From Centroscyllium fabricii (taxonomy: Eukaryota), in assembly GCA_051313645.2 (NCBI GenBank), contig JBNRSN020001110.1, forward strand, positions 1 to 60,303: a stretch of DNA of 60,303 nucleotides, in the 5' to 3' direction. Positions 8,843 through 56,751 of the stretch are shown piece after piece (the first letter of the stretch is position 1; every line of letters begins with the position of its first letter). The position numbers and the translations under genes are program-made. Under the pieces are notes generated by a model. It worked only from the letters and a program-made list of their open reading frames with translations. It ran no database searches and was not told where the DNA came from.

Positions 8843-9097
<255 letters not shown>

Positions 9098-10570: not shown

Positions 10571-12284
10571 TCATTGCTCCTCCTGATTCTCTGACTCTGA
10601 CGTGTCCATTTCCTCCTCTGAGTCACTGTCTAGCTATGTGGTGGACACTTCTGTATTTGGCTCAATAAGTTGTAGGTTTGCCCGGATAGCCACCAGTTTA
10701 TCCACTCTCGTTAGTAAGTCTCTTGTGCACCTTTGTATGCGTATTCCCAAAAAGTGAACAGTTGCATTCAGAGGCCGCTGATGAAGGTGTGATTTGGAGT
10801 ATCAGCGATGCAATGGGTGACAGGGCCTCAGATGTACAAAGTCCCTTCCACCAGACCTTGCTTGGTAGAGAATTTTGCCCGACTTCCCAGAACTTTGCCC
10901 ACGTCCAGATTGAGGTGGCGCGAGGGTAGGAATCACACGAAGTGCTGTTGATCTGTTCTCCAGAAAGTCTTGGTCTCCCAACATGCTCCATGAATCGGCT
11001 TGACATAAAATTCTTGACGCGTCTATGAATTGAACAATTGCCTTCTCCTCTGCTTTGCGCAGCAGGGATGTGGGTCGGGCAATTTGTTCTTTTAAATCAG
11101 CAAAAAGCCCGAGAACATCTGACAAGACAGCATCATCTCCTTCAATCTGAGCAATTGCAGTTGCTACTGCTGAGAGCAGTTTAAGGCTGCTCACCACTCT
11201 CTCCCAAAACACATCATCCAGCAGTATTTTCTTGATGGTGGTTTCCATATCCCCAGACTGGAATATTGCCATTTCTTGCAGCGACTCCTTACCCTCCAGA
11301 AGGCTGTTGTACATTATGACAATGCCACCCCATCTAATGTTGCTGGGCAGCTTCAATGTGGTGTTCTTGTTCTTTGTTGTTTGCTTGGAGTTGTAGGTTG
11401 CTGCAACTACCTGTTTTCCTCTGACATACTTAGCAACTTGCTTGGCTCTCTTGTACAATGTTTCCATGGTTCTCAAACCCATGATGTCCTTGAGGAGCAG
11501 GTTGAGCCCATGAGCTGCGCATCCAATAGACGTAATATGAGGGTAGGCCTCCTCCACTTGAGCCCAAGCAGCCTTCATATTCGCAGCATTGTCAGTAACT
11601 ACTACAAAGACCTTTTGTGATCCAAGATCGTTGATGACCGCTTTCAGCTCATCAGCAATGTATGTGCCTGTGTGTCTGTTGTCCTTCGTGTCTGTGCTCT
11701 TGAACACTGGGAGAGGAGTGGAGACAATGTTGTTTATGATGCCCTCCCCTCGTACATTTGACCACCCATCTGAGATAACTGCAACACAGTCTGCCATCTC
11801 TATTGTTTCTTTGAGCTTTCCTTGGACTGTTATACTCAGCCTCCAGCAAATAAGTAGACAAAGCATGTCTGGTAGGAGGACAGTATGCAGGGCGAATAAC
11901 ATTGAAAAATCTCTTCCAGTACACATTGGCTGTAAGCATGAGGGGTGAGCCTGTTGCATATACAGCTCAAGCAAGACACTCATCTGCATTCTTCTGGCTA
12001 TGGTTATCCATTGTATCAAAGAACCGTCCAAGTGGACCAGGAGTTGCTGATAATAAGGAGCCTGATGCTGAATGTGAACCATCATCTTCACGAATGGAAG
12101 CAGAGGAACTCTGGGCTGAATGCTGTGAGCTTTAAGTGAAGTTGTAGCATTTGGATAATTGCTGCTGCATCTTTGTGGCATTCTTTACATATGGCTTTGT
12201 ACAGTGTTTGCACATGTACACAGTCTTTCCATCTTTAATGCCTGGGGTAAAATGCTTCCACATATCCGATGGTAAAAGTGGCAT
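10571..12284 (-). pseudogene. Frameshifted hAT transposase (BED finger, DUF659-type core, C-terminal dimerisation region)
   Basis: WKHF...YMCKHC BED finger; SDGWSN, VTDNAANM, CAAHGLNL and RW motifs spread over several frames. Confidence 0.9.
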
Positions 12285-13023
12285 TGTTCCATGCAGAGAA
12301 ATAAAGAGCATTCGTCTCTGTGTCGAACTGCGGTCGATCAGCACGATTGCAACATGGTGAGTAAATTTTTCCTGATGCTCCATGTGATGGAAGCATGACC
12401 TGTGCACGCACGACGCTACATCACCCGATCAGGACACATTTGTTCACAGTCACACATAAAACTTGTAATTATTAAAACAAGCCAAGTATGAAGATAAACA
12501 TATATTAAGAAATTCCTTAATAATTATGATTCCATCTCTGTTAGTAATTTTAACAGGACCTGTGGAAGAAAATGAAAGAAATAGAAAAAAAAATTATGCT
12601 AGCATGTGCTTTTATAGGTAAAATTCCTAAGATTCCCAAGCTAAACATCCTGTGGAAAATTTCCAGAAATTTACCAGAAACTTTCCACCCCTTGGCAACC
12701 CTAGTTAAGATTAATAGTTTATAAAATTTAGACGGTCTTAATTTTTGTGGTTATAGTTTCTAAGGTCTCTGTTGTGTATCGGGGAGTGCTAGTAACAAAG
12801 GGACCTTGAGTATATCATTTAATTGTAGTGTAATTAGTGGTATTGATTTGATTTAATTTAAATTAAAGGGTAATTCATGGCAAGACAGCTCAGCCCCGTG
12901 GCATGCTCCTCCTGCGCTATGTGGGAAATGTGTGCGGGAAGTGTATCCAGCTGAAGTTACTGACAATGCATTGCGGCGCTAGAGCTGCAAATGGATACAT
13001 ACTGGAGCATTCGCGATGGAGGA

Positions 13024-21861: not shown

Positions 21862-23588
21862 ACGGATACCCTCACAGATCCTTGCTTTATGAGTCAATGG
21901 GATAGATCTTGACTTTGTGCAATAGTGTAAAACTGGTTGATAGTGAGCTGACAGTCCGTTTTACATCTCTCATCATTTTCATTTCCATTGTGTCACCGTA
22001 ATAAATAACTTCTCAGGAAATATTCTCTTTCTAACTCTCTGCAACTGTTGCCTCTGTTCTCTGCATGCCCCAAGGTTAGGCTGACCAGCTCACGTGAAAT
22101 GTACCTTTAAAAATACATAGCTCCCAGGATTCCCCAGGTTTCACACCCCATAGAAACATAGAAGATAGGAGCAGGAGTAGGCCATTCAGCCCCTCGAGCC
22201 TGCTCCACCATTTAATGAGCTCATGGCTGATGATTCAATTTCAGTACCCTGTCCCTGCTTTCTCCCCATATCCCTTGATCCCTTTAGCCTTAAGAAATAT
22301 ATCCAACTCCTTCTTGAATATATTTAATGAATTGGCCTCTACTGCCTTCTGTGCTAGCGAATTCCACAGGTTCACAACTCTCTGGGTGAGGAAATTCCTC
22401 CTCATCTCGGTGATAAATGGCTTACCCCTTATCCTTAGACTGTGACCCCTGGTTCTGGACTCCCCCACCATCGGGAACATCTTTCCTGCATCTAGTCTGT
22501 CCAGTCCTGTTAATTATAAGTTTCAATGAGATCCCCTCTCATGCTTCTAAACTCCAGCAAGTACAAGCCCAATCGACCCAATCTCTCCTCATACGTCATT
22601 CCTGCCATCCCAGGTATCAGCCTGGTGAATCTTCGCTGGACTCCTTCCATGGCAAGAACATCCTTCCTTAGATAAGGTGACCAAAACTGTACACAATACT
22701 CAAGATGTAGTCTCACCAAGGCCTTGTACAACTGCAGCAAGACGTCCTTGTTCCTGTACTCAAACCCTCTCGCTACGAAGGCCAACATACCATTTGCCTT
22801 CTGAACTGTCTGCTGCACCTGCATGCTTACCTTCAGCGACTGGTGCACAAGGACGCCCAGGTCTCATTGCACTTCCCCTTCTTCCAATCTGTTGCCATTC
22901 AGATAATAATCTGCCTTCTTGTTTTTGACAAGTGGATAACCTCGCATTTATCCACTTTATATTCCATCTACCATGCTTCTGCCCAATCACCCAACCTGTC
23001 CAAATCATACTGGAGTTTCCCGGCATCTTCCTCACAGCACACACAGCTTTATGTCGCCTGCAAACTTGGAGATATTACATCTAGTTCCCTTCTGCAGATC
23101 ATTAATATATATTGTGAACAGCTGGGGTCCAAGGACCGATCCCTGCAGTATCCCACTAGTCACTGCCTGCCACTCTGAAAAACTATTTGCTTTCTGTCTG
23201 CCAACCAGTTCTCTATCCAAGTCAATACCTCACCCCTAATCCCCTGTCAGGGTTCTATAAAAAAAAAAATTCACTTGCCCACTCGGGCAAGTGGATTTCT
23301 AAAACACTTGCCCAAACATAAAGTTCACTTGCCCGAAATTTTTAAAGAAATAAAGATTTTACATTTTTATTAAAATGCTTCAATATAAAGCCATAGATTG
23401 TGATTGTGCCTTTAGTTGCATTGGCCTGGTTTCTGCCCCTCTCTCCCTAAAACTATTGGCCTCTCCATCCTATTCCACCTTTAAAAATCTATTTCCTCAA
23501 GTATTCACTCCATTTCTTCATTTGTCTCTTCCAAACTTTGTGAAGACTCCGCAGGCCGCGGGCTCCCTCACTCTCTCTCCCCGCCTAC

Positions 23589-23826
23589 CTTCGTCCAGCA
23601 GCCGCTCCAGGTGTGAAGAGCCGCAAAAGCTGGGCAGGCTCAACATCAGCTTCTTGTCATTCATCAGCTGCATCAAATAGTCGGACTGGGTCTCGGCTTC
23701 TCCCTCACTCCCATTCCCCCCCCCCCCCCCCTCGGGACTGGGTCTCGGCTTCTCCTTCACTCCCATTCCCCCCCCCCCCTCGGGACTGGGTCTCGGCTTC
23801 TCCTTCACTCCCATTTCCCCCACCAT
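23589..23826 (-). pseudogene. QKI: Captured QKI (quaking) coding exon 1 with a triplicated N-terminal segment
   Basis: [15 protein letters not shown]...[31 protein letters not shown] compared with vertebrate [50 protein letters not shown]; ends GAAG|GTAGGC. Confidence 0.92.
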
Positions 23827-25705
23827 TCTTTTATATATATATATTTTCCCCCCTCTGAGGTGTAATTATAAAGATTTTATAATTGATCGAAAGAATAAAG
23901 AGAGTTGGTTTTTTTTCTTCTCAGAAGCCGCTCCGGTTTTTTCTCTCCCCCTCAGCAGGTCGACGGCACCGACCCACTCTTGCCACGCTTAACCAGCCCA
24001 CTCCACCTAACCCGACTGCTGCCCCATCGCGATTGACACGCCGCCTCCTCCAATCCCCGCCACACCGCCCGGCCAATCCACACCCGCCTCCAGGGCAGGA
24101 TCCACCAACCCCGTTCCCGTCGTCGTCAACCAATCAATTTGACGCGCTGCCTCCTCCAATCAACCACCGCGGCAAACAGAGACATAAACACGATCATCCC
24201 GTGGGCTCGATCATCGATGTGAAATACAGGTACACAACCCTTTATCCGAAACCCTTGGGACTAGATGTTTTTCGGATTTCGCAATTTTTCAGATTTCGGA
24301 GTGAAATTTCAAAGTAACAAAAAATATCAGAGCAGCAGACTGGTAGCAGCGCTTGTCTTCAGGTTTGCAGCCTCTTCCTTCCTGCACCCTGCCTCTGTAT
24401 ATGGAAAAATCACTGCAACCACCAACTGGCACCGACTGATTCCGGGCTCCCCCCGTGCACACCCACTATTCCATCTGGTGCCGGCGGCCTCGGTGAGGAG
24501 GAGGGCACTGTGACCCAGGACATGAAGTACTCCCCCGGCCCGGACGGCGGGGCTGTGCTGCTGACCGGCCAGCCTCCCACCCCCTATAGTGTGCCCGGCC
24601 CGGCACTCGCCGATCAGCCTCCGCACTCAAGTACACGTTGACCCCGGGACTGCCCCGACACACTCCCCGAGCAGCAGCAGCAGCTCCACGCTGCCATCAG
24701 GGTCTGCCAGAGGAGCAGCGCCAACCCCCGGCCCCAACCGGGGCCCGCCATTTGACAGCAGGTAAGTAAAAGCCCGTACAAGTATTTCACTTATAAAAAT
24801 CAGTCGTCGTTTCTTATTGCTGATTCGGGGTTTTTTTAACATCTTTTATCAGGTTTTAATTTTAGTGTTTTAAACTAGGGTAGGAAAAACTAGGCTCAAA
24901 AAACCTGGGCAAATTCAGAGAAAATCACGAATAACAAGTTGTATTTTGAACTTCAGTAAAACTCAAAAACAAAACAAGCAGGAGACGACAAAGCAAAATA
25001 ACAACCGATAATTATTTGCACTGTTTGCAAACAGACCTTTATGGGGGGATCACCATCAGACTCTCACTTAACCTCCTTGATAGGAAACTAAGTTTAGTGT
25101 TGTGGCTGCAGCCACTTGCATGCCACTATGATGGTGGGATAAATGTTGGGAGATGATGCGCAGGGGAACAGCGGCAATTGTGCTTTTAGTAAACAATGCG
25201 TGGGTGTGTGACCTGAGCTAGCCTTCCATTGATAACCTCAGTCTATGGGGGCTCTCAGTGGAACTGTACAGGTAACTGCGTTAGCACGCTGCTCCATATC
25301 TAACTAGGACTGGAAGACCAATCTTTGCTGCAATATAAAGAACAGTCTTCATAGCAGCTCCTTTAAAGATTCAAAGAAAGCTGCACATTGCCCAGTCCTT
25401 GTTCCTTTCCCTGTCAAAAATCAGGTGACATGCATACATGTCTGAAACTGATGTTTTTATTTGGTAAAAAAACAATGGGAAATTGCCACTTTTTATCTCA
25501 AATTCGGGAGGAAGTCAATTGTTCACCTTCCAAAACGATCCGGCAATTTATGAGTAAAAATCAGCAAAACAAACTGTTTTAATCATCCCTATTCTAAATA
25601 GCTTTAATTTCAGCTTTTGAACTAACTCAACACCTTTCAGTCAGGCTTTGGCTCAATTTTATTCAAATATTTAAGTGACCTGATCTTAACTTGCTAATGA
25701 TTGTA

Positions 25706-26029
25706 GAGGTACACAATCCTTTATCCGCGACTCCGAAAACCTCCAAAAAACAAAATTTCAAATGACCCGAGTCGCGTGCGAAACATGACCCGACGCAACC
25801 GACGCTTGACCCACGCAAGTGAGAGGCGTCAGTATCTGAACACTGACCTCCAATATTTTTGGGAATTTGCTCTGTTATTTTTTTTTTAAATGGCTAAAAG
25901 AGCAGCAGATACCACTTTTTGTGAATATTCACATGGTTCGCTGCAGAAAAACTAATGTTAATGCGACCATTACAAAAACCGAAAATATCCGAAATCCCCA
26001 AGGTTTTCGGATAAAGGATTGTGTACCTG
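25706..26029. mobile_element. Tc1/pogo-type MITE
   Basis: TIRs (C/G)AGGTACACAATCCTTTATCCG; inverted relative of 46090-46480; a lone left TIR also lies at 24227. Confidence 0.85.
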
Positions 26030-27082
26030 TGTTGTCGACAAACCTCATGCTTTCCTTGCACCAAATGTGGCTATTTGTGGAAGGAAAGTCTCTCGATGTA
26101 CATTTATCTATTGCTCCCATCTCTAGTCTCATCTTTCCTTTGTTATTTGTAATTGTCTTTTCCTGCTTCTGTCTTTTTATCTTCTTACAATTTTCTTCAC
26201 AGTTCACCTTCCACTCTGTTCTTCCTGCTAGCCAGGGTCCGCGCACGCTCTGGTCACCTTCATCGCCGGTCACCGCCTGGCTGCGCGCACACACCTTTCC
26301 ACCAACCCCCAGTGCTACTGCCGGACCCGGCCACTGCGCAGGCGCCGGGAGGCACAACTCGGGTCACGACTGAACATCGCACTTGCCCAACCGGGCAAGT
26401 GCGATTTTGATTTGCTTGTCCTTCGCCGCATTTTGCTTGCCCCGGGCAAGTGGTTTTGTCGCGCCCTGCCATATGCCTTAATTTTACACGCTAATCTCTT
26501 ATGCAGGACATTATCGAAAGCCTTTTGAAAGTCCAAGTACACCACATCCACTGGTTCTCCCTTATCTATTTTACCAGTTACATCCTCAAAAAATTCCAGT
26601 AGATTAGTCAAGCACGAATTAACTTTTGTAAATCCATGTTGACTTTGTCCGATCCGGTCACTGTTTTCCAATACTCTGCTATTACATCTTTTATAATGGA
26701 CTCTAGCATTTTCCCCACTACCGATGTCAGGCTTACCGGTCTAAAATTTCCCATTTTCTCTCTCCCACCTTTTTTGAACAGTAGGGTAACATTAGCTACC
26801 CTCCAATCCATAGGTACTGTTCCAGAGTCTATAGAATTTTGGAAGATGACCAGCAATGCAGCCACTATTTCTAGAGCCACTTCCTTAAGTACCTAGGAAG
26901 TAGATCATCAGGCCCTGGGAATTTATCGGCCTTCAATCCCGTCACTTTCTCCAACACCATTTCCCTACAAAGATTGATTTCTATCAGTTCCTCCATTTCA
27001 TTAGACCCCATGTTCCTCGACATCTGCGGGAGGTTGTTTGTGTCCTCCTTTGTGAAGACAGAACCAAGTATGTTTTTAATTG

Positions 27083-33450: not shown

Positions 33451-35177
33451 CTGATTTCCATCTCCGTCTCCCTCGGAAAAGCCAATGCCAACCATCCAAG
33501 ACGTCATTAAGTTACAGGAGGACGCTCCTGACTGTGATAAGGGGCTGTGGAAACAGCTTGGTTGTACATATGATTCTGTGTCTAAACTATGGGTCACCCC
33601 AGCTGAGCAAACTTGTAGGTCAGATGAGCTAGCATTATGGGTTATTGAATGTATGCACTTTGCAACTCATTGTGGTGCCAGAGCATGGTGGCATCAACAA
33701 TGACCAGTACATATTTATAACACTGACACCTTTCCAGCTCAATATAGTCCATCTGGAGGGTCTCAAAAGGACCCGTGGGTAACGGTGTCTTACCCATTTC
33801 ACAAGGTATGCCTTTTCCCCGGTTATGCTGCTGACAAATGAGGCAGCGACTGCTAATACCTTGAGCCAGAGATTGTAATCTGGGATGCCACCATGTGGTG
33901 CCAGAGCAACTAGTGACACCTAAAATAGTCGAAGCTGCTCATGGGGGGCAGCCCATTTGTCTTCCTTACCTGATTGGACTTTAGATAACGATTTTGTTTT
34001 GCGGTATATATTGTTGATGTATTTAGTAAATGGATTGAGACCTACCCGACTACGGATAACAAAGCCTCCACTGTTGTAAAAGTTTTAATGAGAGAAATTA
34101 TTCCCAGGTACGGAATTCCAAACCGATTAAGTTCAGATAATGGCCCTCACTTCGTGGGTCAGGTAAACAAGGAATTCTGCACCCAGATGGGCATCCAACA
34201 GGAGCTACATTGTGCCTACAGGCCACAGGCTGCCGGACTGGTCGAACATGCTAACCAGACCGTGAAAAATAAACTTGCCAAATTACAGGCGAGACGGGAA
34301 CTACCTGGCTCAAACTACTCCCCGTGGCCTTGTTCCAAATACGTACTACCCCGGCTGGTGCAGCAAGGTTGAGCCCTGCTGAAATCATATATTACATGAG
34401 GCTCCACTACTCCACCTTCCACACTAACCACGTTAAAGAAGCCATCCCCTATGGACAAGCCCTGCGAATACACAGGATCTGCTCAGACGAGGAGGAACGC
34501 AATGGAAACCTACAGACACTGAAAGACGCCCTCGTAAAAATGGGATATGACACTCGACTCATCGATCGACAGTTCCGACAGGCCACAGCGAAAAATCGCA
34601 TCTACCTCCTCAGAAGACGAACACAGGACACAACCAACAGAGTACCCTTTGTCGTCCAGTACTTCTCCGGAGCGGAGAAACTACGCCATGTTCTTCGCAG
34701 CCTTCAACATGTCATCGATGAAGCCGAACACCTCGCTAAGGCCATCCCCACGCCCCCACTACTCGCCATCAAACAGCCACCGAACCTCAAACAGACCATC
34801 GTTCGCAGCAAATTACCCAGCTTTCCAGAGAACAGCAACCACGACACCACACAACCCTGCCACGGCAACCTCTGCAAGACGTGCCAAATCATCAGCACAG
34901 ATACCATCATTACACGTGAGGACACCACACACCAGGTACATGGTACATACTCATGTGACTCGACTAACGTTGTCTACCTCATACGTTGCAGGAAAGGATG
35001 CCTCGGCATGGTACATCGGCGAGACCATGCAGACACTATGACAACGGATGAACGGACACCGCACAACAATCGCCAGGCAGGAGTGTTCCCTCCCACTCGG
35101 GGAACACTTCAGCAGTCAAGGACATTCAGCCTCCGATCTTCGGGTAAGCATTCTCCAAGGTGGCCTTCGAGACACAC

Positions 35178-35676
35178 TGATAAACTTTGGCTAATTCTAG
35201 ATTGCTTTACTATAGTTTGACATGGGCTAAAAGTTTGGTAGCAAAGAGGTAAAAAGTATAGCGGCAGTCTGTCTAGAGATCTTGTTCTCATAACAAGCTG
35301 CAGCAGCAAAGATAAGGAGGAGTCAACACAAGATGTTGACATTTAATTGGATTTGTATTGTCTCTATTTTTTTCATTGGTTGTTTTCGTTTTTCAGAATT
35401 ATTCGCTGAGCATGTACGTTTAATCTTTTTGTATTGCATAAATAATTGCAGTCTTGGAGCGAGCGGGGCGCACTTCTGGGTTGCTATACGTGTGCAAACA
35501 CAAGTGTCTCTCCGAGTGAAGTACCGGTACTGGGTAATAAACTTTAACTATTTTACAGTCTCTGACTTTGTGTATTACTGAGAAAGTGACAGACTGACCG
35601 ACATGTTTAGTCTCCTAACGTAAGAACCCAGACCCCCAGGAGGGTGGGTCCTCCTCACAGAGTGAGTGAGTTAACA
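35178..35676 (+). mobile_element. Solo LTR inside the Penelope element
   Basis: TGATAA...TTAACA termini; 4-bp TSD ACAC at 35174-35177 and 35677-35680; AATAAA near 35536. Confidence 0.85.
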
Positions 35677-36089
35677 ACACGACAACGTAAAATCATCGGG
35701 CAGAGGCTGATAGCCTAGTTCCGCACCCATGAGCACGGCCTCAACCGTGATATTGGCTTCATGTTGCGCTGCATGTGACCCCGCCTGACGTAGAGTCATC
35801 CAGACTCGAGTCGTATTTGGCTTGTTCTCACTGCACTGTTGCGGCTGCGATTTCCAGTAAGAAAAATCCTTTTTTTTTTTTAATCATTCTGTGGGTTTTC
35901 ACACAGACACCAGACTGTAACATTTGACACTCTGTGACTGCACCTCATTGATCTCAGGCTGACTGATATGTTAGAACACCTTTGATTGCTTTGATGTCTC
36001 TCTGCTGAGGTGTGATGTTGAACAGTTGGAGAGACTACATTGTTCTCTCCCTCTATATATATGCTGTGTTTAAATGAATCTCTTCACTT

Positions 36090-36124
36090 CACCTGATGAA
36101 GGAGCTGCGCTCCGAAAGCTTGTG
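36090..36124 (+). ncRNA. Minimal hammerhead ribozyme in the Penelope pLTR
   Basis: CAC-CTGATGA-A-GGAGC-TGC-GCTCC-GAAA-GCTT-GTG: intact core boxes, stem II, palindromic AAGCTT. Confidence 0.8.
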
Positions 36125-36633
36125 ATTTCAAATAAAACTGTTGGACTATAACCTGGTGTTGTGAGACTTCTTACAATTGTCCACCCCAGTCCAACACATG
36201 GAAATCATATATGGCAGACCGCTCAAAACCCCGTGGAACCAGGAAGTCCCAAAGACTGTCCACTTTCACCACATGACGGCAGAAATGACTAACTATATTT
36301 TGTCGTTAACCAGGGCATTGAGAAGTCTGCACTCCCGGGTACGCGCTGCTTACGTCGACCTCCCTCCTATAGCTAGTCTGTCCAAAATCGAGCCCGGAGC
36401 TTATGTATTGATCAAGAATTGGACGAGAAAAGGATTGGAACCTCGTTGGGAAGGACCCTATCAAGTCCTACTCACCACCCCAACTGCTGCCAAAGTAGAG
36501 GGAAAGAGTGCTGGGGTTCACCTCCACCACTGTAAAATTGTCAGTAATGTTGTGCCTAAAACTTAAAGAATGCTAACCCCTCTCTTTCTTCCAAGAAATG
36601 TCTCCTTAAACAGACGTGGCGTGCCGACCGGCC

Positions 36634-38438
36634 ATGCAGACACCACTATGGATCCTCTCCATCAGTGTCCTGCTCACTCCTGGAATAACTCAACAGCCCA
36701 GAAGGAGAACATGGCGGCAGGACCAACCCAAGCGGGTACACCATCTATGCCAAGGAGACGTGCTTCAGTGCAATGATGATAACCCAAGAGGGTTCGGGAA
36801 ATGGAACATGATCAACTTGGATACCTACACTGGGCTTTTCAGACAGTCCCCCCGCTCGCTAGTGCTGAGAAATAATCACAGAGGGACATTGCCATGCTAT
36901 CGGACTGAGTGTAAATTTGATTATGTTTGCCGACGTCAAGCGGCCGAGTCTGTTACTGCAGGACCAGGACTTAGAACTACAGATACCAAAAAACAAAATC
37001 GTTATCTAAAGTCCAATCAGGAAAGGAAGACAAATGGGCTGCCCCCTATGAGCAGCTTCGACTATTTTAGGTTAGAAGGTGCCCTCACAAAAAGACGTAA
37101 ACGAGATCACCAATGCACTTTCCCTGAAGAAACCCCGACGGGTAACCTATTCCTCCAGACCCACGCAGCCCTATACTCACCAAAGTCAATTGTTTGTTAT
37201 CCGCCCCTGAAATCTGTTATGGGGATGTTTGCCCCAACCCCGGTTATTGTTCCCCCGGACTTTCTTTTAGATACTCACCTCCCTCCTCCCACAACCAATA
37301 TAACATTACCCTATACCTTAACCCCGCCCGCCAATTGCCTGAGACTAAACAGGAACCCTACTGACTATGAGAATTGTTGGAATGGGACGGGCTATGGTTG
37401 TAGGTCGGTATGGGTTAAACAGAACTACACCTGCTTGGTGACACGCTGCCTCCACCATCAATGTACGGTAGGACCTGACACCGTGAGCAATCCGTATGTG
37501 TGCCGATAACCGAAGGAGTACAAGTTCTATGTGGAGAAGGGAATGGGACAACTCTGAAGGTAGAGGGGGAAACCTTTATTATAGTACAAATAGCTAATAG
37601 CCTGCTGATAAGTCAGATACTCTTGAGATCCGAAGTTTAGACTATTTCCTTCCCCCGAGCCATTTAAGCACAAGGTGGAAAAACATACCCGTGATATATA
37701 CCAAACCCAGCTATTTTTTCTTGAGCCAAGGAAAAGCTACTAATTACATGGTAGTAGATGGTAGTAGATACCGCCCCCCGGACTGTAGCCATCGCTACCT
37801 TAACCCCTACCACAGTACGTTGCCCCTACCAATGGACACCCCACCGAAGAATAGTAGCCAGGGCAGCCTCGGAAGAGTTTTGCTCCAAGTGGAAAGATCC
37901 TGAATCCCTAGGAGGACACGGAACCTCTATAGGATATGGATTTGCTGGCCTGTTCTCTATAGGCTATATTGGAGCCTATTTGGCCACCAATAACCGGAAC
38001 TACCTTATCTGTGGCCTCACCATCGTGGGTAATGCTACCATGGGGGCCCTCGACGCAGTCACTGAAGAATTGTCGGAACTCAAGTTGTACGCTATGCAGA
38101 ATAGATATGCCCTAGACTACCTGCTGGCCCGAGAAGGTGGTGCCTGTGCAATAGTAAAAGGTAAATGAATTATGGGAGTCCGAGACCAGACAAAGAACAT
38201 CACCCACTTTATCACTAAGATAAGGGAACAAATGGATAATATGAAGGAAGCAAGTAACTGGGGAGAATGGGGATTTGGAGGATGGTCTGACTGGTTGGTA
38301 AATATGGCTATGTACTTAATAGTTGCAATCGTCGGTATCTTTGTTGGACTAGCAATCATGAAATGTGTTAGGAAGAATGCAGCTAGCTTTGGAAAAAATA
38401 GGTGCCTCAAAGTTGTTAATAGTAAGCCAGACCAATGA
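36634..38438 (+). pseudogene. ERV envelope with gamma-type TM subunit, disrupted
   Basis: Upstream acceptor near 36613; signal peptide; KRRKR; immunosuppressive domain QNRYALDYLLAREGG plus CX6(C>stop); TM helix; frameshifts and a stop at 38166. Confidence 0.9.
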
Positions 38439-40491
38439 ATGTGAAGTGAAGAAAGTGGAAGGTGAAGTAAAGTACGATGATGATGAAGAGTCTGAACGAC
38501 TGAATAGGTTAGACGTAACCGAATATGAGCCCCATAACGGTTGGTTATCATAGAATGATAAAAGGAGGGAATGAGAATACAAAGGTCAGTGAAGAAGAAA
38601 CAAGAAACTGTAAAGGCAGCAAAGAAGTAAGAAATTAATCGGATCTCTAGTGGCTAAAATAGCTGGCGCCCACGATGTTGCCCCATGCTGATAAGGAACA
38701 ATGTAGGGCGGCGTGCAGAAATTATGCAGAATCTTAACCGCATCACGTGATCTTTACCTAGCTGTAACTCAATCATAGTATGCAGCTTGCCCAGCTCGAA
38801 ATGCCATAACTGCCAGACAAGGAAACAGCTCGAAATGCCATAACTGCCAGACACGGAAATCAAGTTAAAAGTATACGTGTACAGCTCATGATTGGCGCAG
38901 AATGTATGTTGTGTTAATGCTGTCACAATTCATTTATAAATATGTAGCACGCTGTATGTCAAACTGCTTACTCTGTTGGACTCGTCCGACTCTTGCAGGA
39001 GTCGGTGCCGATATACCAGAGTAAGGCCCCTCGGACAATAAATCTGTTGAACTTTCCAGTTGTATTCGACGCTGAACCAGACTGAGGATAAAAGAATCTG
39101 TATTATCACCTTCGCCATTCCCTGCCCAGACATGACCAGTGCCACGGTCATCAAGTGTCTCTAATCTATTCTGCATGTTTGGTATGCCGAACTACACACA
39201 CAGCGATAGGGGGACGTCCTTCATGAGTGAATCTAAACTGCTCCCAATCCTCAGGTTTACTGCTTTTTCTGGCCAATTTATATGACCTCTCCTTGGATCT
39301 TATGCTATCTCTAATTTCCCTTGTTAGCCACGGTTGAGTCACCTTTTTCATTTTATTTTTATGCCAAACTGGGATGAACAAATTCTGTAGTTCACCAATG
39401 CGATCTTTGAATGTTTGCCATTGCCTATCCACCGTCAACCCTATGAGTGACATTCCCCAATCAATCGTACCCAACTTATGCCTCATAACATCGTAGTCTC
39501 TGAGTCAACTCCTTCGCTCTCCATCTTAATGAAGAATTCTATCATACTGCTCCGACCCAAGGGGCCTCGCACAACAACATTGCTAATTAATCCTTTCTCA
39601 TTACATAATACCCAGTCTAAGATGGCCTGATCTCTAGTTGGTTCCTCGACATATTGTTCCAGAAAACCATCCCGTATACACTCCAGGAATTCCTCCTCCG
39701 CAGTATTGTTACTAATTTGGTTAGCCAAATCTACATGTAGATTAAAGTCTCCCATGATAACTGCTGTGCCCTTATTGCACGCTTCTCTAATTTCCCTATT
39801 CATGCCATCCCTGACCTCCCTCCGCATTACTGTTTGGAGGTCTATATACCACTCGCACCAACGTTTTCTGCCCCTTGGTATTTCTCAGTTCCACCCATAC
39901 AGATTCCACTGCATCAGAGCTAATATCCTTCCTTACAATTGTGTTAATCCCCTCTTTAACCAGCAATGCTACCCCACCTCCTTTACCTGTTTGCTGGTCT
40001 TTCCTGAATATTGAATAACCCTGGATGTTGACTTCCCAGCCTTGGCCATCCTGGAGCCATGTTTCCATAATCCCAATCAGATCATATTCGTTTACCTCTT
40101 TGCGCAGCCAATTCACCCACCTTATTACGAATGCTCCTCGCATTAAGACACAAAGACTTCAGGCCTGTTTTTTTAACGCTCTTAAGTCTTTTAGAGTTAT
40201 TATTTGCTGTGGCCATGTTTGATTTAAACCCTTGATTTCTCAGTCTGCCACTTTTGTTTTTCTCTTTCCTATCTTTTGCTTTTACCCTGGTTTCCCTTTC
40301 CTCTGTCTCCCCGCTCAGGTTCCCAATGCCCTGCCATTTTAGTTTAAACCATCCTCCAGAGTACTAGCAAACACTGCCCCAAGGCATCAGTCCCACCTCC
40401 CCCAGAATCGGTTCCAATGTCCCAGGAATTTGAATCCCTCCCCCTTGCACCATTCCTCCAGCCACGTATTCATTTGAAATATCCTTCTATT

Positions 40492-42327: not shown

Positions 42328-42417
42328 TGTATTTAAAACTTTGGCTGCATTTTTGTTATGTTTCCCATAGATGGCAAAGTGGAAGCTGCGAGCTCCAGTT
42401 TGATGCACTGCAGGGAC
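42328..42417 (-). CDS. SDHA: SDHA coding exon 2 (mitochondrial targeting region)
   Basis: VPAVHQTGARSFHFAIYGKHNKNAAKVLNT resembles human [38 protein letters not shown] acceptor, GTAAGT donor, 90 nt, phase 0/0. Confidence 0.92.
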
Positions 42418-44093: not shown

Positions 44094-44419
44094 CAGGTTG
44101 TGTACCCTCAGGACCAGGCTACTGGACTACTGAAAATGCCAAACCACTGAAGGTTCGGGCAGCGCATGCGCAGACCAGTCAAAATGGCCGCTGCACATGC
44201 GCAAACCAGTCAAAATGGCCGCTGCGCATGCACAGACCAGTCAAAGAGCAAGGGAATGGGATTCGCGGTCCTGGGAAACCCAAACGCCCGCGCCTTCGGC
44301 ACGCACTCACCCTTCCCGGCGAGCGGCTGCTCCGCAAAATGAAGAGCGCCGGTTTCCAATCGTGCCGGACCACTGCAGCTGCCGGACCATCGGGTGCCGG
44401 ATTACTGGTGCTCAACCTG
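44094..44419. mobile_element. Tc1/pogo-type MITE with GC-rich cargo
   Basis: TA flanks; TIR CAGGTTG(T/A)G(T/C)ACC; tandem GCGCATGCGCAGACCAGTCAAAATGGCC units. Confidence 0.75.
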
Positions 44420-44482
44420 TATAACTATTGCAGACGTCTCATCAGTTAAACTGCTGACTACAACAGAGATATTAGAGTCATA

Positions 44483-45236: not shown

Positions 45237-46089
45237 ATAGAGTTTTACAGCACAGAAAGAGGCCCTTCGGCCCATCGCGTCCGTGTCGGCCATCAAGTCC
45301 TGTCTATTCTAATCTCATTTTCCTGCATTTGGTCCGTAGCCTTGTATGCTATGGCATTTCAAGTGCTCATCTAAATGGTTCTTGAATGTTGAGGGTTCCT
45401 GCCTCTACCACCCTTTCAGGCAGTGAGTTCCAGGTTATAGCCACTCTCTGTTTAAAACCTATGTCAAAATGGTAAAGGAATATTGGGCCTGAAGGGGGTT
45501 TAAAGTCAAACCCCCCAGGATTTTGGTTATTTTAGAAGGCATGCTTAAGGCTGGATAAGGGAAGCAGGGTGCAAACAAAGGGATTGGGATGGGCCTCTGT
45601 AAACAGGCAGTTTGGATATTGGCATAAGCCAGGCTGTCTGGGAACGATGGACTGTCTCGGGTCATTTTACATAATGATAAGACCAACAGAGGAGCAGTTC
45701 CCGCCAAAATTACAGAGCCATCCAAAGCGTGCATAATACAGGACATGCCACTCACCAGCAAAAGGGGCCTCACCTCAACAGGAAGAGACAAATCTTACTG
45801 TAATCAACCAAGGATTAAACAGTCATCTTAAGCCAATTTAGGTTTCGATGGACCATCCCGAATGTAATTCACACCAACTTAAACTGGTTAAGATAGATGG
45901 GACCAGCTCAAAACCCATTAAAGAATTCAAAACCTATCAATATTAAGGCATGCATAAACAAACACATAGCCAACCTAAGAAAGAATCAAAGGGGTCCCAC
46001 AGGAAACTCAAACCATCGAGGACATTAAAACAATTTAAATAAAAGATCAACGGCCCCGATACCACTCAAACTAATTACACAACTTAGTA

Positions 46090-46480
46090 CAGGTACACAA
46101 TCCTTTATCCGAAAACCTTGGGACCGGACGGTTATCGGATTTCGGATATTTTCGGTTTTCAGAATGGTCGCATTAACATTAATATTTCTGCATGAACCTT
46201 GTGAATATTCACAAAAAGTGGAATAACTAAAGACTATAAGCAGTTTATAAATACTCTAGTAAAGTTTATTTGTAAAAATATCGGAGATCAGCAGTCGGGT
46301 GCCGTGAGCGTCGGGGCCCGGCGGGTGCCGGGGCCGTCGGGTGCATCGGGGCCTGTGTGGCCGGGCGCATCGAGGCCGTCATGGCCTGAGCGCCAGGTCA
46401 TATTTCGCGTGCAACTCGGGTCATTTGTAATTTCGGTTTTTGGAGGTTTTCGGAGTAGCGGATAAAGGATTGTGTACCTG
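46090..46480. mobile_element. Tc1/pogo-type MITE
   Basis: 22-bp TIR CAGGTACACAATCCTTTATCCG; TA TSD. Confidence 0.92.
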
Positions 46481-46585: not shown

Positions 46586-47060
46586 GTATTTTGCTATTAT
46601 ATTAGTATAATTGGGAGCCTGTTTCAACACAGAGACAGTTGAGTTTAACAAAGACACAAAGTGCAGTTCAAGTTCAAGAAGAGCCATCATCGAGTAACAT
46701 CAAGGAGGGTCAAACATCTCAAGAAGAAAGACAACTCGGGAGTCAGCAGTTACACAGTACAGTTCACTCTTTAGTTTCGACACAGGAGCTCTCACTCTCT
46801 CTCTCTCTGGAAGCAAGAGTTCCGGAAGCAAGTCAACACACAGGGAGAAACCAGAACAACAGCTTCAGTGACACAGGGCATCGACAACTCAGGAGAAAAC
46901 CGAGGATTCGTATGGTGAGCATTATCCCTGGTCCTTTAGAACTTAACTTAGTTAGTAAGGTGGGATTGGGAGGGTGTAGTATTGTGTCCACTGTTATTCT
47001 TCCTCGTGTATGTCGAAGTGTTTCCCCATTATTTTAGAATGACAAGATTATTGTGTTGTA

Positions 47061-47672
47061 CAGGTTGAAGTTCGTTAATCCGGCACCCGAAAAACCGGCA
47101 GCTTCAGTCGTTCGGCACAGATTTTCCCGACTGCATGCGCAGACAATTCAAAATGGCCGCCGTTGGGGCTGGGCTTCCCTTTCACCTAACATATACTCAC
47201 TGGATCCCGGCATAGTGACCACCCCGATGTCGTTGGTGAATCCCAGGGCCAGAAAATGAGCTGTTGCCACCTTTCGCAGGACGCAGTACAGCCAAAACTC
47301 GGCGCCCGGCTCCCCATCGCTACCGGAGGCTGCTGCGTGCTGACGTCACTGCGTTACGAAGCTGCTGTGCGGTGGCATCACGTGAGCCGGGCTTGAGTCG
47401 CGCATTGGGCCTCAGGCCCGCTGGAGCCGTGCAGCCCGCTCCCTGATCCACCATGGGCAGCAGAATCAAGTGCGTCCTGTGAGTTCCACCCGACCCTAGG
47501 GCCGAAAATTACCTTCCAGGTACCGGCGGCGCATGCATAGAGCATTAAAAATTTTGCAGCGGCCATTTTGAATGCCCTGCGCATGCGCTGCCAAAGCTTC
47601 AATCATTCAGCGTTTTCAATAATTCGGCAGGGTGCTGGTCCCAACCCTGCCGGATTAACGAACTTCAACCTG
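47061..47672. mobile_element. Tc1/pogo-type MITE with promoter-like cargo
   Basis: Perfect 25-bp TIR CAGGTTGAAGTTCGTTAATCCGGCA; TA TSD. Confidence 0.92.
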
Positions 47673-48070
47673 TATTTTCTTTTCTCAAATAAAAATCGAA
47701 GTTCTTTTCACCAACTCAGTTGTCTGCTGCAATTTCATTGCAACCCTAAATAAGTCCCAGTCTAGCAAAGGGTGTGGGAGAGAGTCGAACCGCTCAGAAA
47801 TCAGAGGCAAAGCTGACCACAAAACACCACCCCTTACAGAATTGATTACAGTAAGATTTGTCTCTTCCTGCTGAGGTGAGGGCCCCTTTTGCTGGTGAGT
47901 GGCATGTCCTGTATTATGCACGCTTTGGATGGCTCTGTAATTTTGGTGGGAACTGCTCCTCTGTTGGTCTTTTATCATTATGTAAAATGATCCAAGACAG
48001 TCCATCGTTCCCAGACAGCCTGGCTTATGCCAATATGCAAACTGCCTGTTTACAACGGCCCATCCCAATC

Positions 48071-48787
48071 TCAAGAAAACTAAGGAGATCATAGTGGACT
48101 TCCGGAGGACTGGAAGCAGAAGACACACCCCCATCTTCATCCAAGGGGCTGAGGTGGAAAGGGTGTCCAGCTTCAAGTTCCTCGGGGTCCACATCTCGGA
48201 AGACCTCTCCTGGTCACTAAACACCTCCTCTCTGATTAAGAAGGCCCAACAGCACCTGTACTTCCTAAGGAAGCTGAAGAAAGCCAGGCTGTCATCCGGC
48301 ATCCTCTCCAACTTCTACCGCTGCACAATCGAAAGCATACTGACAAGCTGCATCACAGTCTGGTATGGAAATTGCACCATCTCAGACCGGAAGACCCTGC
48401 AGCGGGTAGTCAAAACTGCCCAACGAATCACCAGTACCCAGCTACCGTCAATGGATAGCATCTACCTCAAACGCTGCCTACGGAGGTCTCTGAACATTAT
48501 TAAAGACCCCACACACCCCAGCCACAGTCTGTTCGCCCCCCTGCCCTCCGGGAGACGCTACAGATCAATTCGCACCCGCACAACTAGATTTAAGGATAGC
48601 TTCTTCCCCAGGGCTGTCAGCCTCCTGAACTCTAAAAATAAACTCCGGTACCTGCACACCTGAAAATGTACTTTACTGTATGCATTTGCATGTAATTTAT
48701 TTGCACTACTCTCGGGAGCATCGAGTCTTCGTCTCGTTGTATTGTACTAGTACTCTGCAATGACAATAAAACTTGAATTGAATTGAA
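48071..48787 (+). mobile_element. 5'-truncated Rex1/Babar-type LINE
   Basis: Open 189-aa RT C-terminal ORF 48094-48663; AATAAA plus (TTGAA)n tail. Confidence 0.88.
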
Positions 48788-49048
48788 TTGTTTGCACCCT
48801 GCTTACCTTTTCCAGGCTTAAGCATGCCTTCTAAAATAACCAAAATCCTGGGGGGTTTGACTTTAAACCCCCTTCAGGCCCCAATATTCCTTTACCATTT
48901 TGACATAGGTTTTAAACAGTCTATAAATCTCTTCTTTATGGTAAATCTTCCTGTTTGTGGGATCCTCAGAATTTTGAGAATCTTACACTACTGAGACCCC
49001 AGTAACTAGTATCACTTACATAACTCACACTGGTCACATTAATCAGTA

Positions 49049-50147: not shown

Positions 50148-50476
50148 CAGGTCCGGCACCGTTAATCCGGAAACTTCAGTTGTTCGGAACAAATCCAGCC
50201 GACTGGTCTGCGAATGCGCAAAATGGCCGCCGCACTTGGCTGCGTATGCGTAAAATGGCCACCGCGCTTGGCTGCGTATGTGTAAAATGGCCACCGCACT
50301 TGGCTGCGCATGCCCGGGCCTCTCCCCGAACGATTGATGCTTCGGCGAGCGCATGCACAGACCATTCAAAATGGCTGCCAAAGGCATGCGCTTGCCGAAG
50401 CTTCAATCGTTCAGATTTTTCACGAATCCGGCACCAGCCTAATCCCGCCGGTGCCTGATTAACGGTGTCGGACCTG
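50148..50476. mobile_element. Tc1/pogo-type MITE
   Basis: TA flanks; TIR CAGGTCCG(G/A)CACCGTTAATC; internal 31-bp tandem units. Confidence 0.88.
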
Positions 50477-51819
50477 TACTGGTTTATCGTAAAAACTAAT
50501 GTCTTTTAGGGAATGAAATCTGCAGTCCTTACCAATCCAGCCAAAATGTGACTCCAGCCATGTGGTTGACTCTTAACTGCCCTCAAACCGCTACGACAAA
50601 TGATGAGAATAAAATTTACCTAGGCATCGGATTCCGACACGACAAAGGCACAGCCCAGCCCAGTCGACCCTGCAGGTCCTCCTCACTAACACTTGGGGAC
50701 TTGTGCCAAAATTGTGAGGGCTGTCCCACATACTAGCCAAACAACCAGCATGTGAATGCTGAGTGTATGATCCTTCTTGGCCTTCTCCGGAGGTCCCCAC
50801 CATCACAGAAGCCAGTATTCAGACAATTTCATTCATTCCACATGATATCAAGAAATGGCTGAGCGCACTGGATACAGCAAAGGCCATGAGCCCTGGCAGT
50901 GCTGAAGACTGGTGCTCCAAAACTAGCCGTGCCTTTAATCAAGCTGTTCCAGTACAGCTACAACACTGGCATTTACCCGACAAAGAAGAAAATTGCCCAG
51001 GTATGTCCTGTCCACAAATCCAATCTGGCTAATTACTGCCCCATCAGTCTACTCTCAATCATCAGCAAAGTGATCAAGATGTCAAGCTATCAAGTGGCAC
51101 TTACTTACCTGCTCACCGATGCTCAGTTTGGATTCTGCCAGGACCACTCGGCTCCAAACTTCATTAGCGCTTTGGTCCAAAATGGAAAAAAGAGCTGAAT
51201 TCCAGAGGTGAGGTGAGAATGACTGTCCCTGACATCAAGGCAGCATTTGGCCGAGTGTAGCATCAAGGAGCCCTAGCAAAACTGAAGTCAATGAGAATCG
51301 GGGGAAAATTCTCCACTGGCTGGAGTCATACCTCACACAAAGGAAGGTGGTTGATGGGGGCCAATCATCTCAGCCCCAAGACATCACTGCAGGAGTTCCT
51401 AGGGCAATATCCTAGGCCCAACCACCTTCAGCTGCTTCATCAATGACCTTGCTTCCATCATAAGGTCAGAAGTGGGGATGTTTGTTGATGACTGCTCAAT
51501 GTTCAGTTCCATTCGCAACTCTTCAGATAATGACCATGATGTGGAGGTGCCGGTGTTGGACTGGGGTGGACAAATGTAAGAAGTCACACAACACCAGGTT
51601 ATAGTTCAACAGTTTTATTTGAAATCACAAGCTTTCGGAGCGTTGCTCCTTCATGAGGTGAAGTGAAGAGATGCATAATACACAGCATATATAGTCAGAA
51701 AACAATGTAATCTTTCCAACTGCCCTTCATCACACCTCGGCAGAGAGACATTCATAGCAATCAAAGGTGTGAATGGTGTTCAAACAAATCAATCAGGCAG
51801 GCACCATCCGAAGAACAAT

Positions 51820-56709: not shown

Positions 56710-56751
56710 CGATCGTTGGAGCAGGGCCGCCGCCAGGCAACGCGCCGCCAT
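56710..56751 (-). CDS. SDHA: SDHA coding exon 1 ([14 protein letters not shown])
   Basis: ATG in GAAATGG context inside a CpG-rich patch; Arg/Ala/Leu presequence; GTGAGT donor, phase 0, in frame with exon 2. Confidence 0.8.

Follow-up and report, generated by a model that had tools for sequence, protein, structure and literature searches.

The window studied here, the whole of a 60,303-nt contig from the shark Centroscyllium fabricii, holds the 5′ part of SDHA on its minus strand (Table 1). Within SDHA intron 1, 4.8 kb ahead of exon 2, lies a 612-bp element framed as TA|CAGGTTGAAG...CTTCAACCTG|TA, whose ends are complementary at 27 of 27 bases when the TA is counted (inverted-repeat search). 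The initial annotation of this DNA had described a MITE with perfect TIRs at this place, carrying a CRE, an E-box, a start codon on each strand and a GTGAGT donor on the left, all of which are present where it put them. Indeed, the element has the size, the TIRs and the high copy number of a MITE and is without a transposase, six-frame translation yielding host exon fragments only. Between the two arms of a parent element it holds a copy of the divergent starts of two host genes, CYB561D2 and NPRL2, the CYB561D2-side donor lying in the sense direction of SDHA. The left arm ends in GCATGCGC and CAAAATGGCCGCC, which we take to be NRF1-like and YY1-like motifs.

The CYB561D2 exon copy, 117 nt long against 124 nt in the host, carries a 1-nt loss past the ATG and a 6-nt loss, and the ATG is therefore off the CYB561D2 frame. 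The NPRL2 exon copy, entered from the plus-strand ATG of CCACCATGG at 47453, has the 5-nt loss of subfamily A (see below), with its frame shifted and a GTGAGT left at 47479; its donor reads CAG|GTACCG (47519/47520), and the AA|GTGCGT previously proposed as the donor sits inside NPRL2 exon 1. When the 612 bases were shuffled 2,000 times with dinucleotides preserved, the CRE appeared in 12 shuffles, the E-box in 10 and both in none. The promoter core between the two ATGs is tandemly repeated in many other copies. An inverted repeat of ~300 bp (window 45500-45807 and 47842-48866, 94-99%), its right arm split by a LINE-like insert, flanks the element, and the MITE may be nested inside a larger long-TIR element.

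Table 1. Positions in the window of the element, its parts and the surrounding SDHA exons
Feature	Positions	Strand	Remarks
Target-site duplication TA, left	47059..47060	.	TA on both sides in 20/26 two-ended copies, of 30 position-ordered
Left TIR, 25 bp	47061..47085	+	100% complementary pair
Left arm of parent element, ending in the two motifs named in the text	47061..47161	+	absent from host locus; common to sibling elements
Captured host cargo, copy of G000:C1156:5,726,003-5,726,377	47162..47527	.	313/386 aligned positions identical, E 4e-105 (120-kb local search)
CYB561D2 intron 1, first 39 nt, GTGAGT donor at 47200	47162..47200	-	
CYB561D2 coding exon 1 copy	47201..47317	-	25/41 residues identical to Heterodontus CYB561D2, E 5e-14 pairwise
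Copy of shared promoter and 5′ UTR region between both ATGs	47318..47452	.	132 nt in host
CRE palindrome TGACGTCA	47341..47348	.	host promoter has CRE at matching place
E-box TCACGTGA	47378..47385	.	host promoter counterpart GTCACGTGAG, matching place
NPRL2 coding exon 1 copy	47453..47519	+	67 nt vs 72 in host
NPRL2 donor and 8 nt of intron 1	47520..47527	+	final 4 nt (CGGC) also in parent's right arm
Right arm of parent element, with internal inverted repeat	47524..47672	+	84% over 151 nt to 355-bp cargo-less sibling, C1156:5,749,157-5,749,511
Right TIR, 25 bp	47648..47672	-	
Target-site duplication TA, right	47673..47674	.	
SDHA exon 3	8879-9040	-	E 4e-30
Likely SDHA exon 2, 90 nt, phase 0	42328..42417	-	only two PDB matches, both SDHA precursors, weak, E 0.6
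Likely SDHA exon 1	56710-56751	-	placed by position

Source of the captured sequence

The source of the cargo was reached by a search of the genome for cytochrome b561, which gave 8 matches, and by walking upstream from the match on contig C1156. The locus found there is 375 bp long, matches positions 102-467 of the element at 81% and is without arms or TIRs. It comprises one exon per strand, of 124 nt (minus) and 72 nt (plus), whose ATGs are separated by 132 nt and each of which ends at a donor; the CRE and the E-box are present along with these two first coding exons and their donors. The earlier proposal, capture of a bidirectional host promoter along with two divergent first coding exons and their donors, and the expected homology to the 5′ end of a gene are borne out by this TIR-less locus.

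The plus-strand exon is NPRL2 exon 1: a PDB search identified it with E 1.4e-9, it agrees with shark NPRL2 proteins at 100% of the residues in the matched stretch, and the N-terminus that it encodes is conserved in human PDB chains, birds, fishes and a brittle star. The window's own right-hand exon, read past the frameshift, gives EFHPTLGPKITFQ, and in PDB this matches NPRL2 only (E 2e-4). The minus-strand exon is CYB561D2 exon 1, with 32 of 41 residues matching Heterodontus CYB561D2; the gene has three exons with matching phases at the source (the further ones at 5,716,462 and 5,703,523), an open frame of 221 codons and a last exon 91% identical to that of Heterodontus. The best protein matches for the source exons all came from sharks and rays. 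A search for NPRL2 exons 2 onward found none in the ~200 kb past exon 1 and none genome-wide, a run of 200 Ns lying 1 kb past exon 1; exon 1 is the part of the source NPRL2 gene that was located. A Pfam scan of three cargo peptides returned 0 families, a PDB search with the left-hand peptide no match and Rfam, at gathering thresholds, 0 matches. For a left-hand peptide of 42 residues, 21 candidates came up in a protein search, with a score for none of them. The two genes appear to be linked in one bird, where both proteins lie on a contig of 20,084 bases, taken as the same contig from its equal size. In human, CYB561D2 and NPRL2 presumably have the same head-to-head layout. The accessible text of PMC2841140 and PMC10917166 does not state it.

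The right-hand exon had been assigned to DENND1A, or a DENND1-like gene, from six residues, MGSRIK. The K of this peptide proved to be a rare change, AAG being found in 2 of 30 aligned copies (the window copy and L007), whereas the host and most copies read E. The exon is instead that of NPRL2, according to PDB, shark proteins and the source locus, and the left-hand exon that of CYB561D2; the DENND1A assignment, displaced by a DNA-level source that encodes NPRL2, is now hardly credible. The expectation that a genome search would return TIR-flanked copies together with the promoter and first exon of a gene was correct in both respects, the gene being CYB561D2/NPRL2 and not a dennd1 paralogue. 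A TFEB/CLEAR link for the E-box was considered and is not claimed, the literature consulted being general papers only.

The high DNA identity between the host locus and the element could also be read in the opposite direction, the host promoter having been built from the element by exaptation. We give this almost no credence: the host exons encode NPRL2 and CYB561D2 N-termini that are conserved far outside this lineage, the host locus is without arms and TIRs, and the frame-breaking losses lie in the element copies. Capture of the host gene starts by the element is the reading followed below.

Copy number, subfamilies and tandem cores

A DNA search of the 7.2-Gb genome with the element gave 7,494 first-look candidates, of which 40 were scored; these were all near full length, had 92-93% identity apart from the window itself and lay in unrelated flanks. 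A 23-mer of the cargo, taken from the CYB561D2 exon, has 5,270 exact matches in the genome, one of which is the host, against 0 for the reversed control. As this 23-mer is held exactly in 37 of 49 copies chosen otherwise, the family would comprise roughly 7,000 copies, an estimate that is likely low because the 49 copies are well preserved. Among the first 30 matches by position, which represent the first 54 Mb of one contig, 26 have both ends, with TA on both sides in the proportion given in Table 1. Like multicopy Pack-TIRs, the element has moved as a unit to unlinked sites with differing flanks. No empty site for the window copy was found in the 856 kb of loci compared.

Three subfamilies can be told apart by the state of the NPRL2 exon, which is intact in subfamily B, has the 5-nt loss in subfamily A, the window's type, and has lost its ATG in subfamily C, the majority (24 C, 3 A, 2 B and 1 rearranged among the 30 position-ordered copies). 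The subfamily-A junction has 1,084 matches and the intact NPRL2 pattern of subfamily B has 118. In some subfamily C copies, e.g. L090, inspection by eye showed a CYB561D2 exon that has lost 9 nt and retains an ATG whose frame runs on to the donor, the NPRL2 ATG being gone. At 26 alignment columns all three subfamilies differ from the host alike. In a 32-row tree, subfamily C (99/96) and nine A rows (97/93) form groups and the host falls among the B rows with weak support; L078 belongs to class A by its deletion, yet stands among the B rows. Taken from these alignments, a single capture followed by several waves of spread is the likely origin of the three subfamilies. Individual copies differ from the commonest letters of their own subfamily at 2-3% of non-CpG sites.

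Between two and five tandem cores occur in 11 of the 30 position-ordered copies (11 of the 24 of subfamily C), in units of 122-136 bp (~133) covering the CRE and E-box as well as the NPRL2 5′ UTR. Unlinked loci have the diagnostic changes of the upstream units in common (at one alignment column, 13 of 18 vs 1 of 20), and the duplicated, multi-core form is therefore itself mobile. Contigs from three sequencing runs of 'organism A', two of which are guessed to be RNA, were compared with the element and with the source locus. They extend over the cargo, its junctions with the arms and the tandem junction, from which the presence of the family follows and no more. Among the rows listed for these contigs, beyond which there are 217 and 40 more loose ends, neither donor has a splice joint or a loose end; contigs of this kind cannot show expression.

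Sequence decay and possible promoter activity

CpG positions have changed 3.3-4.5 times faster than other sites in the 72 copies counted of 80 rows; the rows dropped were L082 and L097 (truncated), L100 (from the L039 locus), L103, L043 (rearranged) and those left unclassified. The CpGs of the motifs have changed in 7/121, 12/74 and 14/86 cases, against 130/1844, 124/1158 and 138/1267 for other CpGs (p 0.71, 0.18 and 0.15, respectively). Conservation of the CRE or E-box beyond the neutral expectation was thus not found in the 72 copies taken in bulk, a comparison in which single exapted copies would not show. Most copies are likely to be methylated and silent and to be decaying neutrally, methylation being read from the substitutions only. 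The CpG decay and the unprotected motifs argue against function of the copies at large; they are compatible with exaptation of single copies and with higher mobility of the master elements.

The promoter motifs may nevertheless maintain an open state of the element in the germ line and thereby raise its transposition rate, some copies serving as new two-way promoters and first exons, a reading that is compatible with our favoured explanation (see Discussion) and that we regard as doubtful but worth entertaining. For the window copy it would entail splicing from 47201 to SDHA exon 2, with the SDHA leader replaced by a 39-residue peptide. The stretch from ATG to donor is in fact open over its 117 nt and in phase 0, the same as likely SDHA exon 2, because of the two small losses in the CYB561D2 exon copy, but such a phase is expected by chance in 1 case in 3. 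Multi-core masters bearing repeated CRE/E-box cores have spread, which speaks for this reading; on the other side, one tandem junction is common to all copies and may represent one lucky event. Retention of the donors (left 60/72, right 65/72) and the presence of a CRE at the source of both cargos traced so far point the same way, whereas the unprotected motif CpGs and the loss of the NPRL2 ATG in the majority subfamily point against it. In bats, according to the available text of PMC4224331, Helitrons with promoters out-copied those with other cargo.

The carrier family and its other cargos

The arms of the element are also found without this cargo, in siblings L149, L153, L173 and C1156:5,749,157, the last of which lies 23 kb from the source locus and has the right arm in common. 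One TIR variant has 60,230 exact ends in the genome, and 30 sampled ends enclose many different interiors, some without the CYB561D2/NPRL2 cargo. Two of these 30, L147 and L151, contain a frame resembling CENP-W (E 0.015). The cargo of L151 (L151:1103-1192) matches G000:C1:428,958,824-428,958,972 at 84% over 149 nt. This site, in which a CRE and an ATG are found with a donor downstream, lies 10.7 kb upstream of the one CENP-W Pfam match and has no TIR in the flanks examined. L151 carries the CENP-W promoter, with its CRE, and most of exon 1, and the same cargo is present in L147. Together with the CYB561D2/NPRL2 cargo, this means that gene starts have been captured at least twice, and the family may be biased towards CpG-island gene starts.

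Further sibling cargos look like gene 5′ ends (L152, L162, L165, L168 (531 bp), L160 and L172; L150, L163 and L174; L132:2377-3077). Among them we observed a presumably X-box-like motif followed by an ATG, ATG|GT or similar donor sites, and a promoter-like stretch with GG|GTAAGG. The window itself contains other small TA/CAGG-ended elements, namely 44095-44421 (with a donor-like site on the minus strand), 50148-50477 (resembling the cargo-less parent), 46090-46480, 25709-26030 and one from 24228, in which a GC-rich exon-like stretch ends in CAG|GTAAGT at ~24762. An element with CAGGG...CCCTG inverted ends (23245-26473) contains a Quaking-like exon and donor (minus strand, ~23557-23680; best PDB match Protein quaking, E 9e-4). 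This is probably the other capture in the window, of which the present one is independent, as the initial annotation had held. A hAT-like transposase remnant (~10700-12290) and retrovirus-like pol/env remnants (~33900-38600) were seen by eye.

The TA target-site duplication is that of the Tc1/mariner superfamily, including pogo/Tigger, and the TIR resembles, we believe, that of Tigger4/Zombi. DDE_1 transposases are abundant in the genome, with at least 150 scored matches, and the 30 examined all fall into one cluster. Full-length DDE_1 copies of ~2.38 kb have CAGG ends and a right-end layout that is alike at 29 of 43 positions (hand count), with a different TIR start. No autonomous element with exactly this TIR was found among the 30 DDE_1 loci examined of the 150 listed. 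The sole link between arms and transposase is L132:1332-2229, in which the left arm of the element family is joined to 763 bp of a pogo-type transposase, 93.6% to L123.

Discussion

We conclude with considerable confidence that a TA-flanked TIR element has carried the start of CYB561D2/NPRL2 to more than 5,000 places, following what was likely one capture by template switching and a spread that was likely driven by pogo/Tigger, and that most copies are likely silent. Our working hypothesis is that repair or replication of a cargo-less parent would have switched its DNA template, once, to the open promoter. This is suggested by the 4 nt (CGGC) that host and arm have in common at the right junction, where the left junction shares at most 1 base, and by the hairpin-forming arm beside the junction. 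A pogo/Tigger-type transposase would then have spread the element in trans. We place the capture at the DNA level because the cargo includes exons of both strands together with the intervening region and a stub of intron at either end.

Short nascent transcripts are abundant at gene 5′ ends, and a cargo covering such ends might have entered through an RNA intermediate, as a retroposed or template-switched transcript. This route seems very unlikely, the cargo being one collinear stretch of two exons on opposite strands, with the region between them, bordered by 39 and 8 nt of unspliced intron; neither poly(A) nor an inner TSD was seen. A switch of DNA template stands as the preferred route. The element is a high-copy vertebrate Pack-TIR, likely driven by pogo/Tigger: it has TIRs and a TSD, a host-derived interior with a TIR-less parental copy, and arms that match a cargo-less family.

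As far as its available text goes, the survey of animal genomes by Tan et al. (2021; PMC8277862) describes TIR transposons as seldom capturing host sequence, and nearly always in a single copy, with four multicopy Pack-TIR cases in 100 genomes, to which the elephant shark contributes none; TcMariner often serves as the carrier, and template switching is the model for the multicopy cases. Our element resembles these Pack-TIRs in being a TIR transposon with a non-TE host interior and a parental copy elsewhere, and the multicopy cases in distinct TSDs and GC-rich cargo. Unlike them, it has more than 5,000 copies from one capture, contains a whole two-gene promoter and has a cargo that has grown in tandem. 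The element also resembles non-autonomous derivatives of pogo/Tigger (Tc1/mariner) in its TA TSD, CAGG termini, TIRs of ~25 bp and the genomic DDE_1 copies with a related end layout; no autonomous copy with its TIR was found among the DDE_1 loci examined, and the family may already have an automatic repeat-library name.

Helitron ends read TC...CTRR, with no TIR and no TSD, and the Helitron class is ruled out for this element by its TIRs and TA flanks. In its working it nonetheless resembles bat Helitrons, e.g. HelibatN3 with NUBPL, in which a captured gene start, running from the promoter through the 5′ UTR and first exon into intron 1, has been amplified (Thomas et al., 2014; PMC4224331). 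In the available text of that report the NUBPL cargo has about a thousand copies and the cargos of 15 genes together 4,690, with a bias to gene 5′ ends, so that the one family described here exceeds the bat Helitron promoter total. The bat elements are rolling-circle transposons without TIRs or TA duplications, whereas the carrier here is a cut-and-paste TIR element; and the main text of PMC4224331 does not use the word 'bidirectional', whereas the present cargo is a two-gene promoter with tandem cores. Plant Pack-MULEs and Pack-TYPE elements are likewise non-autonomous TIR elements with many GC-rich host cargos, and those with regulatory sequence are, in the accessible parts of two reports, expressed more often (PMC5861414, PMC8903248). 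Pack-MULEs, however, belong to Mutator and have TSDs of 8-11 bp, whereas here a TA TSD, short TIRs and thousands of copies of one cargo are found in a vertebrate. The literature consulted, largely papers outside subscription journals, contains no report of this element or of promoter-carrying TIR elements in sharks, and the available text of bioRxiv 2025.02.19.638963 does not discuss capture.

In practice, nearly everything that a search for NPRL2 in this genome brings up is a copy of the element, and short reads derived from the true promoter will be mapped wrongly. Large-scale amplification of promoters after their capture has been reported for bat Helitrons (PMC4224331); here it involves a cut-and-paste family and has happened at least twice, on a scale (more than 5,000 sites for one complete two-gene promoter) that is not found in the available text of the animal survey (PMC8277862). 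With its many sibling cargos and its copies of 1-5 cores, the family makes it possible to ask within one genome whether promoter cargo raises the success of an element, and whether decoy copies, present in their thousands, have an effect on the parent genes or rewire neighbouring ones. We put forward tentatively, as a possibility with the odds against it, that this shark lineage has a vertebrate counterpart of Pack-MULEs, in which a single pogo-like family takes up CpG-island housekeeping promoters and their first exons time after time, becomes more mobile through them, amplifies the CRE/E-box core as tandem repeats and may have seeded thousands of two-way promoters with donors, some of which would drive chimeric host transcripts such as an alternative start of SDHA.
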